From NCBI GenBank assembly GCA_963769975.1, contig CAVYNS010000002.1:280769-344768 (forward strand): a stretch of 64,000 nt of DNA. Reading direction: 5' to 3'. How positions within the stretch are numbered: the first letter of the stretch is position 1; each line of letters starts with the position of its first letter. This document shows positions 20,235 to 26,392 of this stretch, in pieces. A model generated the notes under the pieces. That model was not told the DNA's origin. It saw only the letters and a program-made list of their open reading frames with translations, and did no database searches. Source of the DNA: an uncultured Chloroflexia bacterium (lineage in GTDB: Bacteria > Chloroflexota > Dehalococcoidia > GIF9 > AB-539-J10). A program made the translations under genes and the position numbers.

Positions 20235-21035
20235 ATGAAATTCGTCGATAAACTGCTTAACGCCAGCCGAAAGAATAAGAGCTGGCTGTGCATCGGACTG
20301 GACCCCGACCCGGAGCTTATGCCTGCAGTAGACGTTTTACAATTCAACAAAGCCATCATCGAGGCCACCTCCGACCTGGTCTGCGCTTATAAACCCAATC
20401 TAGCTTTCTATGAAGCTTTAGGAACCGAAGGGCTGGCTACCCTGGAGAAGACCGTTAAATATATACCCGGTGATATTCCTGTAATTGGTGATGCCAAGCG
20501 CGGAGACATCGGCAACACTGCCAGGGCTTATGCTAAGGCTCTCTTTTCGGTTCTGGGCTTCGATGCCGCTACTGTCAATCCCTACCTTGGCTTCGATTCC
20601 ATAGAGCCGTTTATTAATTATCAAGATAAAGGGGTATTTATCCTGTGCCGAACATCCAACCGCGGAGCCACCGATTTCCAAGACCTTCTCACCAATGGCC
20701 TGCCGCTATACGAAGCAGTAGCCCAAAAAGCCAAAGAATGGGATATTCATGGCAATATCGGCCTGGTAGTCGGGGCGACCTATCCCGAGGAGTTAAAGAA
20801 AGTCCGCTCAATTTGCCCCGAAATGCCTTTGCTTATTCCGGGCATTGGCGCTCAGAGAGGAGACCTGGCTTCAGCAGTCGGCTACGGAGTGGATGCCCGG
20901 GGCGAGAAGGCGATTATCAATGTGTCCAGGCAAATTCTTTATGCTTCCAAGGAAAAGGATTTTGCCCAGGCGGCTAGAAACATAGCTGAAAAAATACGCC
21001 AGCAAATCAATGACTGCAGAAATAAAGCTCGGTGA
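20235..21035 (+). CDS. pyrF: Orotidine 5'-phosphate decarboxylase (type 2, long form)
   Basis: WLCIGLDPD..DAKRGDIGNTA catalytic motifs. Confidence 0.9.
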   Translation: MKFVDKLLNASRKNKSWLCIGLDPDPELMPAVDVLQFNKAIIEATSDLVCAYKPNLAFYEALGTEGLATLEKTVKYIPGDIPVIGDAKRGDIGNTARAYAKALFSVLGFDAATVNPYLGFDSIEPFINYQDKGVFILCRTSNRGATDFQDLLTNGLPLYEAVAQKAKEWDIHGNIGLVVGATYPEELKKVRSICPEMPLLIPGIGAQRGDLASAVGYGVDARGEKAIINVSRQILYASKEKDFAQAARNIAEKIRQQINDCRNKAR

Positions 21036-21201
21036 CGTAGTCCGGCTGCGCAAAGCGCACCCCTGCGGCAGCTATGAATGGGAGGTGGTAAGGGTGAGCA
21101 CCGACATCGGCCTTAAATGTCGCAAATGCCAGAGAAGGGTGCTTTTGGCCAGAGAAGTGTTTGGGAGAAGGCTGAAAGAGTTTGTCTCCAAAGGTGACTA
21201 A
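21010..21201 (+). CDS. DUF951-family small protein (63 aa; HPCG...W..C.KC motif). It is the intact reference copy of the repeated segment.
   Basis: LRKAHPCGSYEWEVVRVSTDIGLKCRKCQRRVLLAREVF matches the conserved DUF951 pattern. Its 3' half plus about 90 bp downstream is repeated at 24195-24352 and 26234-26392. Confidence 0.6.
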   Translation: MTAEIKLGDVVRLRKAHPCGSYEWEVVRVSTDIGLKCRKCQRRVLLAREVFGRRLKEFVSKGD

Positions 21202-21358
21202 CTAACTAGCTTCGCGCCAATGAAAAGTCCCTGCGATTGGTTTGTGCACTGACGTAACAAAACAGGCTAATGTGTCCTAACCACTAGATTATGACCTCTA
21301 GTTATAGTACTTTATCTCCTCTATAATCTTTGATTTATTAACGAATTTTTTTATAAAT

Positions 21359-21859
21359 ATGAAAATACTCGTTTTCTTACACGGAACAACTATAATGCAC
21401 AAAAATGCTAAGGGTCTTACTCGAGAAGAAATAATTAGGCAAGTTATCGATGGTGATGAATCTCTTCATGATTCCGCATTATACATTCCTGTCGGCAACG
21501 CTGTTAAGAAATTACAGGAATGGAAGGGACGAGGAGCAAAAATATGCTATTTAAGCTCTCATAAAAATGCTAAAGATGTTGAAAAGGACAAGTTTGTTTT
21601 GAAGAAATACGCTTTCCCCGATGGTCAAATCTTTTATCGTCGAAATAGAGAGGAATACAAGGATGTTGTTAAAAGAATTCAACCTCTTCCAGATGTGATT
21701 GTTGAAGACAATTGTGAATCAATAGGTGGAAAAGTTGAAATGGTTTATCCTAATCTTAAGCCAGAATTAAAGACCAGAATCAAATCAATTGTTGTTAAAG
21801 AGTTTGAAGGCATAGACGATATTCCTGATGAAATTTCCGAATTAACGAAACAAGATTGA
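21359..21859 (+). CDS. Hypothetical protein in a strongly AT-rich region (about 35% GC against about 50% background)
   Basis: 166-aa ORF with Lys/Glu-rich composition and AT-rich flanks (21202-21358 and 21860-22104). No family recognised. Confidence 0.5.
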   Translation: MKILVFLHGTTIMHKNAKGLTREEIIRQVIDGDESLHDSALYIPVGNAVKKLQEWKGRGAKICYLSSHKNAKDVEKDKFVLKKYAFPDGQIFYRRNREEYKDVVKRIQPLPDVIVEDNCESIGGKVEMVYPNLKPELKTRIKSIVVKEFEGIDDIPDEISELTKQD

Positions 21860-22104
21860 AAATAAGGCTTGAACTGGAACTGGTGTCTGCAAGAAGGCAA
21901 AATAAGCCCTGTTTAGCTAATAGTAGGATTGCATTGTCTTCTTCACCCAGACTACTGGAAATCCGCCTTCTGGAAAAGTCAGTGTATACTAAATTCTAAT
22001 TGAATTCGTAAATTTGGATTCGCAAAAGCCAAAATTGTTGGGTCACTTTTCAATCGTTTGTGTGAAGTAGAAATTGACCCTCTCTCATATCCAATCAGCC
22101 TGAA

Positions 22105-22704
22105 TCATTTACCGGTCAGTATGTTAAGCATTTCTAAACCGTGAATGATCATAGTCACGGCTATGGCAGCCAGCAGCAAGCTAAATACCTTGGAAACTGC
22201 CTTCAGCCCACCCTGCCCAAGAAAACGAGCCACCTGTCCTCCCGCCATAAAAATCGCCCAAGCAATAAGCATATTCAGAGCGAATGACACAAGAACCATA
22301 TAGAGAGGGTATTGAGTTGCCAATAACAACAGCGTTGTTATTGTAGCCGGTCCTACGGTTAGAGGTGTGCCAATAGGGACTACCGCTACCATTTCCTCTT
22401 TGATTAGCTCTATCATTCGTCCGGTTGTCATGTGTTTTATGGAAAGCACTAGCAGAATAAGGCCGCCAGCGATAGCAAATGAACCTACTGAAATGTTCAT
22501 TACCCGCAGAATGAACTGCCCGAAAAACAAAAATATAAGACCGACAACGGTAGCTGTTATGGTAGCCACATGGATCATCTTGTAGCGCTCTTGCTTTGAC
22601 ATGCCTTCACTCATAGAGATGACGAAGGGCAGGATGCCCAGCGCGTCAACAACGATAAATAAGGGCACAAAGGTTAATATGAAATTCTGTAAGTTGTTAT
22701 TCAA
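22105..22704 (-). CDS. MarC family (UPF0056) integral membrane protein
   Basis: Six TM helices and the PIGTPLTVGPATITT motif characteristic of MarC/UPF0056. Confidence 0.75.
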   Translation of the reverse strand: MNNNLQNFILTFVPLFIVVDALGILPFVISMSEGMSKQERYKMIHVATITATVVGLIFLFFGQFILRVMNISVGSFAIAGGLILLVLSIKHMTTGRMIELIKEEMVAVVPIGTPLTVGPATITTLLLLATQYPLYMVLVSFALNMLIAWAIFMAGGQVARFLGQGGLKAVSKVFSLLLAAIAVTMIIHGLEMLNILTGK

Positions 22705-24985: not shown

Positions 24986-25431
24986 AGCTTGTTTTCTGGT
25001 GTGAATTTCAGCGCAATGCCGTCTATGCAATAGCGTTTGCCGGTCGGTGCCGGGCCATCATTGAAAACATGACCGAGATGGGCACCACACCTGGCGCAAA
25101 GTACCTCCGTCCGCAGCCTTCCCTCACTTGTATCAGGCTGCTGAACGATATTGAGCGGTGAGACTGGTTCATAATAACTGGGCCAACCCGTCCCGGAATT
25201 GAACTTGGTTGAACTGCGAAAAAGGTCCGTGCCACAACGGACGCAGCGGAAAATACCGGGTTCATGGATCTGGTCAAATGTGCAGGTGCCCGGATCTTCA
25301 GTTCCTTTCCTGGCGGTGATTTCATACTGCTCTGCGGTCAATAGTTTCTTCCATTCTGCGTCCGTTTTCTCTACTCTCTCCACCGTCACCACCTTCTTCT
25401 GTTTAGCATCATAAATCTTGACCGTGGCCAT
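24982..25431 (-). CDS. msrB: Peptide methionine sulfoxide reductase MsrB
   Basis: Two CxxC pairs plus the RCxxCGxHLGHVF catalytic motif. A strong AGGAGGTG RBS precedes MATVKIYD. The track ORF extends to 25479. Confidence 0.9.
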   Translation of the reverse strand: MATVKIYDAKQKKVVTVERVEKTDAEWKKLLTAEQYEITARKGTEDPGTCTFDQIHEPGIFRCVRCGTDLFRSSTKFNSGTGWPSYYEPVSPLNIVQQPDTSEGRLRTEVLCARCGAHLGHVFNDGPAPTGKRYCIDGIALKFTPENKL

Positions 25432-25641
25432 ATGCTCACCTCCTGCAGGCTTCCTCGGCGCATTATAGCACGTAGGCAAGCTTCACCTGCCAGTCATCCG
25501 TGTCTGCAACTGTTGACATCGTATGAGTAGTAGTTTATCGTTACTGCCAAGATGAAGGCCAAAGATGCGAAACAGTCTCAGGGCAAAAATCGCCCTTTGC
25601 GGAGTTCAGTCATTTATTATGGCGACTATTAGGAGGAGCCC

Positions 25642-26148
25642 ATGAACGAAGAAGGCAAGACAATAAAAGTTCCCAACGCCATCAAAAAGATGTTGCTAGC
25701 GGATGAACAAGTTATGGCAGTCATAAAGCAATCGAGGTTGAAGGCAGCCGTCACACCCGACTCCATAATAATCACTAACCATAGAATAATCAGGTATTCT
25801 CCATCAGCCCTGGGATTACACAAGGAGATTGAAGATTACAGATATGAAGATATAGCCAATCTGAAAATCGATAAGGGAATCATGTTTGCCACCATCACTG
25901 TAAAGCGCCGATTCATGAGCGAGGATCTAATCCTGGACAACCTCCCAAAAGGTCGGGCGGATTACATTTCCAGGGCCATTCAGGAGAATCTCAGGCGAAT
26001 GAGTAGCGCCCCCGCATCCCCAGTTACAACCAATCAGCGGGTTTCTCTAACTTCGCCAGAGGACCCTCTTCAAGTCCTGAAGCTTCGCTTTGCCAGAGGA
26101 GAGATTACTAAGGAACAATTTGAGGAAATGAAGAGAGCGTTGGAGTAG
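25642..26148 (+). CDS. Bacterial PH-domain (bPH_2/YdbS-like) protein with a C-terminal SHOCT domain
   Basis: The central region matches bPH_2 (ITNHRIIRY...IEDYRYEDIANLKIDKGIMFATITV). The C-terminus LKLRFARGEITKEQFEEMKRALE is a SHOCT motif. Confidence 0.6.
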   Translation: MNEEGKTIKVPNAIKKMLLADEQVMAVIKQSRLKAAVTPDSIIITNHRIIRYSPSALGLHKEIEDYRYEDIANLKIDKGIMFATITVKRRFMSEDLILDNLPKGRADYISRAIQENLRRMSSAPASPVTTNQRVSLTSPEDPLQVLKLRFARGEITKEQFEEMKRALE

Positions 26149-26233
26149 ACTTGGCTGACGCCCTGATTGCTCTCTATCCTGTTCCCGTAGCTGTGATGAG
26201 AGAGGGACGGAGTCTGCGTACACCTCTTGAATG

Positions 26234-26392
26234 CCAACGAAAGGTGCTTTTGGCAAGAAACGTGCCTGGGAGAAGGGTGAAAGAATTTGTCTCCAAAAGT
26301 GACTACCTAACCAGCTTCGCGACAATAAAAAGCACCCTGCGACGGTTTATGTAGTGAGGTAACAAAACTGGCTATTGTGTAATTCCACCAGG
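26234..26392 (+). pseudogene. Truncated copy 3 of the DUF951 gene 3' end plus about 100 bp of downstream sequence
   Basis: Aligns to 21130-21290 (ca..gaa.ggtgcttttggc.aga.a.gtg..tgggagaagg.tgaaaga.tttgtctccaaa.gtgacta.ctaac.agcttcgcg.caat.aaaag..ccctgcga..gtt..tg...tga.gtaacaaaac.ggcta.tgtgt). The track ORF 26151..26354 is a frame artefact across it. Confidence 0.75.

Follow-up and report, generated by a model that had tools for sequence, protein, structure and literature searches.

How did a short gap between two neighboring housekeeping genes grow into an 11-kb array of cargo, and why does that array contain repeated ends of the very genes that bound it? The question is raised by a 64,000-nt stretch of the genome of an uncultured Chloroflexia bacterium (contig CAVYNS010000002.1; hereafter the window), in which the DUF951 gene and dinB lie 11 kb apart, as against 13-107 bp in outgroup relatives. 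The ancestral gene order, shown by relatives with an empty site, is pyrF>DUF951>dinB; pyrF overlaps the start of the DUF951 gene, and the two adjoin in most related loci. The window hotspot is a string of four units laid out on the plan DUF951 3' piece, left intergenic sequence, cargo, right intergenic sequence and dinB 5' piece, and between its cargo units 1-4 stand two 3' pieces of DUF951 and a single 5' piece of dinB (Table 1). A first-pass annotation, made from the sequence alone, had taken the repeated DUF951 ends for the attL/attR footprint of site-specific integration and had suggested either decayed islands or recombination-driven cassette accretion at a preferred site. We find that the locus is a real, recurrent hotspot without an integrase in or near it, and we propose, with a probability of roughly 60%, that the three DUF951 copies are border scars of an array built by recombination in a once-short DUF951-dinB gap.

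Duplicated gene ends in the DUF951-dinB gap

A 42-nt DUF951 probe allowed up to three mismatches matches the window at 21165, 24265 and 26270 alone and finds nothing in 100 shuffles, and all three copies lie on the same strand. Copy 1 is the intact gene together with about 90 nt of downstream sequence; alignment confirmed the two further direct copies of its 3' end that had been annotated and refined their limits to those in Table 1. Copy 2 is 90% identical to copy 1 over its first 81 nt and 80% over its last 79 nt, copy 3 gives a BLAST span of 26230-26380 with 83.6% identity to copy 1 and reaches 26418 by comparison with relatives, and copies 2 and 3 are closer to each other (89-93%) than either is to copy 1. 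The 33-bp in-frame deletion reported for copy 2 is real and lies between two 10-nt direct repeats inside DUF951 (GAGAAGGGTG / GAGAAGGCTG; window 24265-24275 versus 21141-21183), and the same 33-nt deletion arose independently in copy 3 of a related locus (L001, at about 8620). The left edge of copy 2 is also secondary, as it derives by a deletion of ~190 bp between 11-12-nt direct repeats from the codon-12 junction found in L003, L005 and L102. Copy 3 begins mid-gene, as had been noticed, and has its stop codon mutated from TAA to TAC; it keeps the downstream motif GTAACAAAAC.GGCTA.TGTGT that also follows copy 1, whereas copy 2 carries instead a different piece of the same intergenic region. 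The junction between the MFS gene and copy 2 is orthologous in L001, L006 and L027, and that between the bPH gene and copy 3 is orthologous in L001; since these are independent assemblies, the junctions are not an assembly artefact. In the spacer before copy 2, a 19-nt segment (24138-24157) matches the sequence after the copy 1 motif (21278-21297) at 16 of 19 positions, which beats 500 shuffles, and may be a remnant of the left intergenic flank beyond cargo unit 1; at the other window junctions, the search for dinB or intergenic remnants was marginal at J3 (p about 0.03) and found nothing at J2. A 67-aa reading frame with a TTG start (26151-26354) stays open through copy 3, and a functional role for it is improbable.

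A fourth repeat, overlooked in the first-pass annotation, comes from the other flank. The segment 32110-32240, made up of 42 nt upstream of dinB and about 30 of its codons, is duplicated at 29839-29970 with 91% identity, and the two copies bracket cargo unit 4. Directly upstream of the dinB promoter, tandem units of 21-23 nt ending in AGTTGG occur in two or three copies depending on the locus (window 29799-29843, L140 2270-2340, L121 10672-10730). One such unit in the window (29828-29843) was flagged as terminator-like; support for a hairpin or terminator function in the unit that precedes dinB is weak, the mean z being -0.8 and 8 of 40 copies scoring below -1.5.

We then compared the locus with its relatives, labelled L001 and so on. 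An exact look-up with the DUF951 protein gave no match, and a DUF951 protein search retrieved uncultured Dehalococcoidia, with 78 loci from species-representative genomes and 80 from metagenomes, of which up to 20 kb was inspected per genome. All nine loci with an empty site (L012, L014, L020, L031 (Dehalogenimonas), L109, L122, L126, L128 and L145) are outgroups, their pyrF being at most 85% identical to that of the window. Within the window's clade the gap is filled, measuring 0.9-11 kb where DUF951 and dinB share a contig and holding variable cargo; the arrangement with DUF951 as left and dinB as right border is seen in the window and in L007, L016, L086, L091, L095, L103, L113, L115, L121, L140 and L148. 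Among the 44 of 61 clade loci that have at least 2 kb downstream of DUF951 and were used for fragment counts, 29 have additional DUF951 copies or fragments, truncated dinB 5' copies or both. These amount to 23 extra DUF951 pieces in 17 loci and 25 truncated dinB 5' copies in 20 loci, invariably on the same strand and inside the gap, and one locus (L092) holds four DUF951 copies. Gene content is not conserved across these relatives, and the repeat is confined to this locus. The expectation of a preferred site with variable cassettes and the DUF951 3' end as a constant border was borne out: copy 3 is followed by a SIR2-NACHT gene in the window and by katG in L001, the homology between the two stopping at 26378 with different cargo beyond, and the 183 open reading frames (ORFs) of at least 110 aa in 38 islands fall into 158 clusters.

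Breakpoints, exchanged tracts and a model of assembly

The fragments do not share a common edge. DUF951 pieces start at codons 7, 11-12, 15, 18-19, 30, 33, 36-37 or 39, dinB pieces end anywhere from codon 23 to codon 65, and in at least five distinct seams a dinB 5' piece is fused directly to a DUF951 or pyrF 3' piece through a microhomology of 2-8 nt or a short filler (Table 1). The repeats within a locus are 78-96% identical and never 100%. A right end joined to a left start at a microhomology has the geometry of an illegitimate joint, be it a tandem-duplication junction or a one-ended (homology-facilitated) integration, and does not fit a conservative site-specific crossover. One seam (L015 16856-17161) is in frame and yields a 101-aa chimeric ORF, DinB(1-55)-DUF951(17-63), behind the dinB promoter; the in-frame chimera is kept in four contigs (L015, L080, L092 and L136).

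A different kind of trace is found in the anchors. The sliding identity between the window and L001 is about 90% over pyrF and the 5' part of DUF951, steps up to 98-100% from 21156 to about 22100 and is 83% from 22156 onward; the step at 21156 thus places the left crossover of a recent transfer inside the repeated segment itself. The corresponding near-identical tract with L006 runs from 21264 to about 22660. Both tracts take in an AT-rich orphan gene of cargo unit 1, whose DNA is 98-100% identical in L001 and L006 although the core genes there are only ~90% identical, which indicates a recent spread between lineages. Furthermore, the intact gene most similar to a DUF951 or dinB fragment usually belongs to another lineage and not to the fragment's own genome (for example 93% versus 85% in L015), although choosing the best match among about 128 candidates biases this comparison.

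We propose that such an array would grow by two kinds of step. In the frequent one, cargo would be swapped between relatives by homologous recombination in the conserved flanks, the anchors being the DUF951 3' end with the left intergenic flank on one side and the dinB promoter with the dinB 5' end on the other; truncated internal copies could act as additional landing pads. In the rare one, a unit would be added, its dinB-proximal end being joined illegitimately, at 2-8 nt of microhomology, to a point within DUF951, within pyrF or in the intergenic region. Two routes are conceivable, one-ended (homology-facilitated illegitimate) integration of a relative's DNA and a tandem-duplication joint whose cargo is swapped afterwards, and by either of them the seam would come to hold a dinB 5' copy and a DUF951 3' copy, both truncated. 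The seams would later be trimmed as sequence is lost between short direct repeats, as in the 33-nt and ~190-bp deletions at copy 2, and such trimming would explain why window copies 2 and 3 stand without dinB partners.

Competing explanations and known systems

The intergenic sequence at the cargo borders bears on how far this model can be carried. The nearest empty sites (L122, L128) read ...GCACCCyGGGATG|AAAAGTTGGCT..., whereas the clade reads ...GCGATG|GTTTGTG..AGGTAACAAAAC... on the left flank and ...CGATG|AAAAGTTGG on the right, so that the sequence following ...GCGATG, including what the first-pass annotation had called the downstream motif, is inserted material when compared with the empty site. 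The inner flanks contain a motif of about 23 nt, AACAAAAC.G.CTA....GTk on the left (also written AGGTAACAAAAC.G.CTA....GTk) and ...AAAAGTTGG on the right, whose outer half stays constant while the half next to the cargo varies; in some copies a perfect 9-bp inverted repeat is formed, AGGTAACAA-N9-TTGTTACCT. Fuzzy matches to the motif number 78 on the gene strand and 10 on the other, at the hotspot only; a permissive search of the window with an 11-13-nt core gave 14 matches for 19 expected by chance, of which just the good ones, all at the hotspot, carry meaning. Cargo borders fall at reference positions 192-195, 201-206, 209-217, 233-235, 252-274, 303 and 325-332, cargo families diverge anywhere from ~10 to 60 nt after the left motif, and in the window the motif does not stand at both ends of the cargo units. 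The primordial insertion is flanked by a 4-5-nt CGATG repeat, which is compatible with a transposon and not diagnostic of one; the reading of the inner flanks as transposon ends was dropped, as they are not terminal inverted repeats of each other (p 0.56-0.98). The hairpin potential of the border motif is weak (mean z -0.8). Discrete, site-bounded cassettes are likewise unsupported: the nearly constant ends with which the MFS unit reappears in nine or more other array contexts coincide with gene boundaries, and the ends of the katG unit are ragged.

Several points weigh against an array assembled by homologous swapping and rare illegitimate addition. At least 12 unrelated cargo sequences begin right after ...CACAAAACGCTAnnnnGTk, and the borders between cargo and flank are non-random within the intergenic region, clustering beside copies of the ~23-nt motif, which is not obviously expected from purely illegitimate loading; sharp borders would be explained adequately, too, if deletions in a streamlined genome had pared the sequence back to a functional element. 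Every repeat has diverged, so the sequences offer no young event and the steps are reconstructed rather than observed. Nowhere is a seam flanked by matching cargo, which leaves simple tandem duplication unsupported and makes import an inference. The span inspected per genome also leaves room for a recombinase acting in trans.

Such an enzyme, unrecognized and encoded elsewhere, might load or exchange integrase-less cassettes at the partly palindromic motif, with the gene fragments as by-products, and if so the locus would give Dehalococcoidia an integron-like or Xer-like means of handling multi-gene cassettes. The strand bias of the motif and its restriction to the hotspot, the cargo sequences that start immediately after it, its constant outer and variable inner halves with the occasional perfect inverted repeat, and the CGATG repeat all speak for this possibility. 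We nevertheless consider it doubtful, given that cargo borders occupy seven or more positions, divergence after the left motif is spread over ~50 nt, the window units lack a motif on one side or the other, the inner flanks are not inverted repeats, hairpin potential is weak, the katG unit is ragged, and trimming could produce the sharp edges. Serial site-specific integration at an att site in the DUF951 3' end, by islands that supplied replacement ends and later lost their integrases, is less probable still and largely refuted. Same-strand 3' target fragments at island borders are its classic footprint, and copies of 80-90% identity are what element-borne replacement ends would look like; phage 21 and e14, for instance, insert into the end of the icd gene and supply a replacement end. 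However, the attL/attR interpretation fails on several counts: about 50 islands and their surroundings yielded no integrase, the fragments begin at diverse codons between 7 and 39 with no single core, dinB 5' fragments are equally common and cannot be produced by a single att site in DUF951, dinB-DUF951 fusions occur at microhomologies, the cargo is intergenic rather than within DUF951, and viral contigs lack any DUF951 piece. Specifically, about 45 island proteins scanned singly contained no integrase, resolvase or transposase, so that the integrase expected beside a DUF951 fragment in relatives did not turn up among the proteins scanned; a batch scan of 118 cargo representatives found no recombinase family in two or more of them, rarer families not being listed one by one; no integrase or transposase lies within 13 kb on either side of the window array; no gene cluster is common to most islands, as a shared mobility module would be; and the viral collection held neither a DUF951 relative nor a copy of the repeat. 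Of the two earlier suggestions, recombination-driven cassette accretion at a preferred site comes close to the evidence, and an origin from integrase-bearing islands does not.

A purely internal history, in which the DUF951-dinB interval was tandemly duplicated again and again and the copies diverged and decayed in place with no horizontal input, would explain why the seams join a right end to a left start at microhomologies, exactly as tandem-duplication joints do. Such joints arise spontaneously at high rates. Yet the cargo is unrelated across every seam and differs between close relatives, tracts of 98-100% identity link lineages that are ~10% diverged, fragments resemble foreign intact genes more than the gene of their own genome, and the orphan has only 35% guanine + cytosine (GC); as the sole explanation this history is refuted, and we hold it unlikely overall. 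We find it scarcely credible that a dispersed repeat, a structured RNA, a regulatory element with no relation to the two genes or an assembly artefact accounts for the repeats: the intergenic part does have a conserved motif and one unit looks terminator-like, but the repeats follow DUF951 and dinB codon by codon, occur at this locus alone in the 64 kb and in ~1.5 Mb of related loci, give fold z-scores of -0.7 to +0.6 with no Rfam match, and form identical junctions in independent assemblies. No Rfam family was detected between 19 and 34 kb, and no transfer RNA (tRNA) or transfer-messenger RNA (tmRNA) gene lies near the site, the sole tRNAs of the window being at 7989-8149.

Among known systems, an array assembled by recombination in its flanks most resembles two. 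In Neisseria, the minimal mobile elements (Saunders & Snyder 2002; Snyder 2007; summarized in PMC3787668) are variable regions between two specific conserved genes, which hold different whole-gene cassettes in close relatives, lack mobility genes and are exchanged by homologous recombination in the flanks, and all four of these features are found here. What differs is that the present units also build up in tandem, with as many as four or more at one locus, that both flanking genes have left truncated copies, joined at microhomologies, in the seams, and that the host belongs to an uncultured Dehalococcoidia lineage. The core defence hotspots (cDHS) of Pseudomonas aeruginosa, for which transfer by flank homologous recombination has been proposed and the assembly mechanism left open (PMC10250203), likewise have fixed core-gene flanks, a large size range, no assignable mobile element family, and defence systems in their cargo, here Avs4, a type IIG restriction-modification enzyme and SIR2-NACHT. 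In contrast to cDHS, the cargo is mixed, with katG, msrAB, transporters and a glycine-cleavage operon beside the defence genes, the islands are much smaller (1-11 kb), and where scar-free transfer is predicted for cDHS, this locus retains scars that record the addition of units. We accordingly regard it as a variant of minimal mobile elements or cDHS, set apart by tandem accretion and by truncated copies of both flanks at the seams. For the seams themselves, homology-facilitated illegitimate recombination (de Vries & Wackernagel 2002 and others), described in PMC6382021 as one homologous anchor plus a 3-10-bp microhomology joint, offers a parallel in the microhomologies of 2-8 nt or short filler seen here; that process is known from laboratory transformation, whereas here it would be inferred from natural, old junctions.

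Other systems are more distant. Islands and prophages with dusA-specific integrases, which insert at the end of a protein gene and provide a new end for it (PMC4482086), share the same-strand, diverged gene-end copies at the borders and the intact target gene, but the present locus has no integrase that we found, no fixed crossover, a duplicated dinB 5' end as well, and intergenic cargo. The ssrA (tmRNA) islands of Dehalococcoides and Dehalogenimonas (PMC13390414) occur in the same bacterial class, show direct repeats of the target 3' end and are known in tandem arrangements; theirs, however, are exact repeats of 11-25 bp with adjacent recombinase genes and an RNA-gene target, as opposed to diverged gene fragments of 100-250 bp, no recombinase found, protein-gene flanks and no tRNA or tmRNA target. 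Integrons also have a tandem cassette array at one site and a short repeated motif at cassette borders, but neither intI nor attC-like hairpins were found here, and the cassettes hold several genes, occur in either orientation and bring promoters of their own. Transposon features, Tn7-like or other, are absent, in that no transposase and no terminal inverted repeats were found. Integrase-free hotspots of defence and accessory genes between core genes are widely reported, and their assembly is acknowledged to be open (PMC10250203). Against this background, the locus provides a readable record in the form of flank-gene scars at unit borders, microhomology seams and recombination tracts in the anchors; it supplies a testable model of homologous swapping with rare illegitimate additive joints, and a bioinformatic signature, flank-gene fragments inside the island, with which to examine other integrase-free hotspots. 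It also represents a second kind of Dehalococcoidia plasticity region, distinct from the recombinase-driven ssrA islands.

Cargo and neighborhood

The gene calls of the first-pass annotation (orphan, MarC and MFS; msrA, msrB and bPH-SHOCT; SIR2-NACHT) proved correct by Pfam, and the coordinates of all features are collected in Table 1.

Table 1. Features of the DUF951-dinB hotspot in the window (positions of the 64,000-nt stretch) and seams between flank-gene fragments in related loci (numbers in seam names are codons)
Feature	Position	Strand	Evidence and remarks
pyrF (OMP decarboxylase)	20235-21035	+	Pfam OMPdecase 9e-33; conserved left core flank
Intact DUF951 gene (copy 1), left anchor	21010-21201	+	Pfam DUF951 (PF06107) 7e-22
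Recently exchanged tract, DUF951 3' end through AT-rich orphan	21156-22100	+	98-100% identity to L001, flanks ~90%
Left inner flank after copy 1	21202-21297	+	Conserved motif GTAACAAAACAGGCTAATGTG at 21254-21276
Cargo unit 1	21359-24128		Orphan 21359-21859 (+); MarC 22105-22704 (-); MFS 22905-24128 (-); Pfam
DUF951 3' fragment, copy 2	24194-24343	+	Codon 18 to past the stop; 33-nt deletion
Remnant of middle intergenic motif (GGAGT..GGAGTCACAAAACGCTGGAAAGTT)	24364-24404	+	Reference positions 296-332; cargo unit 2 begins directly after
Cargo unit 2	24437-26148		msrA 24437-25030 (-); msrB 24982-25479 (-); bPH-SHOCT 25642-26148 (+); Pfam
DUF951 3' fragment, copy 3, with ~110 nt of left intergenic sequence	26230-26418	+	Codon 39 to end; reference positions 116-303
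Cargo unit 3: SIR2 (ThsA-like)-NACHT-HEAT protein	26484-29732	+	Pfam SIR2_2, NACHT, HEAT_2; PADLOC ThsA 6e-41
Truncated dinB 5' copy	29799-29970	+	Two ~21-nt units ending in AGTTGG, dinB promoter region, codons 1 to ~30
Cargo unit 4	30065-32056	-	DedA/VTT 30065-30694; second MFS 30791-32056; Pfam, NCBIfam
dinB upstream region and intact dinB, right anchor	32110-33321	+
dinB (DNA polymerase IV)	32152-33321	+	Pfam IMS, IMS_C, IMS_HHH
Seam dinB 29 / DUF951 30			Joint GC; L151
Seam dinB 39 / DUF951 30			Joint GCGCCG; L101
Seam dinB ~42 / DUF951 33			Short microhomology; L092
Seam dinB 47-55 / DUF951 15-23			25-nt patch, 70% similar, varying crossover points; L015, L080, L092, L136
Seam dinB 46 / pyrF 238			9-nt filler; L110

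The orphan ORF encodes 166 aa, and its protein is without a match in Pfam, NCBIfam, PADLOC or PDB sequences. Cargo unit 2 is common to the window, L001, L006 and L004; in it, the msrA and msrB ORFs overlap by 49 nt and each has a TTG start, and the true starts probably lie further downstream. The SIR2-NACHT unit 3 is present in no other locus compared, and its SIR2-NACHT-HEAT protein is likely anti-phage. Defence cargo across the islands includes, besides this ThsA-like protein, a full-length Avs4 (PADLOC, 1989 bits), a type IIG restriction-modification enzyme with a PLD nuclease, a DUF4062-NACHT protein, a caspase and an HTH-M78 pair. Much of the cargo is metabolic, stress-related or transport-related, with katG, msrAB and flavodoxin on the stress side, and the slot also takes core-like metabolic operons, as a complete glycine-cleavage system with lipoyl synthase and ligase is carried in two loci (L027 5948-13202 and L117 3855-11113). 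Internally highly repetitive ORFs of Flg_new_2 or LRR type occur in L026 (11.8-16.7 kb), L106 (4.6-6.5 kb) and L110 (15.5-17.1 kb), as well as in L116, L130, L135 and L138, and are probably surface proteins.

The 13 kb on each side of the array is housekeeping sequence, with TldD/PmbA, RNase J and FtsK on one side and lexA, relA, hisS, gyrB, obg and dnaA on the other. The hotspot lies near the replication origin, dnaA (43843-45207, minus strand), gyrB, hisS, obg and relA/spoT being found within 12-24 kb, and lexA (35307-35945) is situated just 2 kb from dinB.

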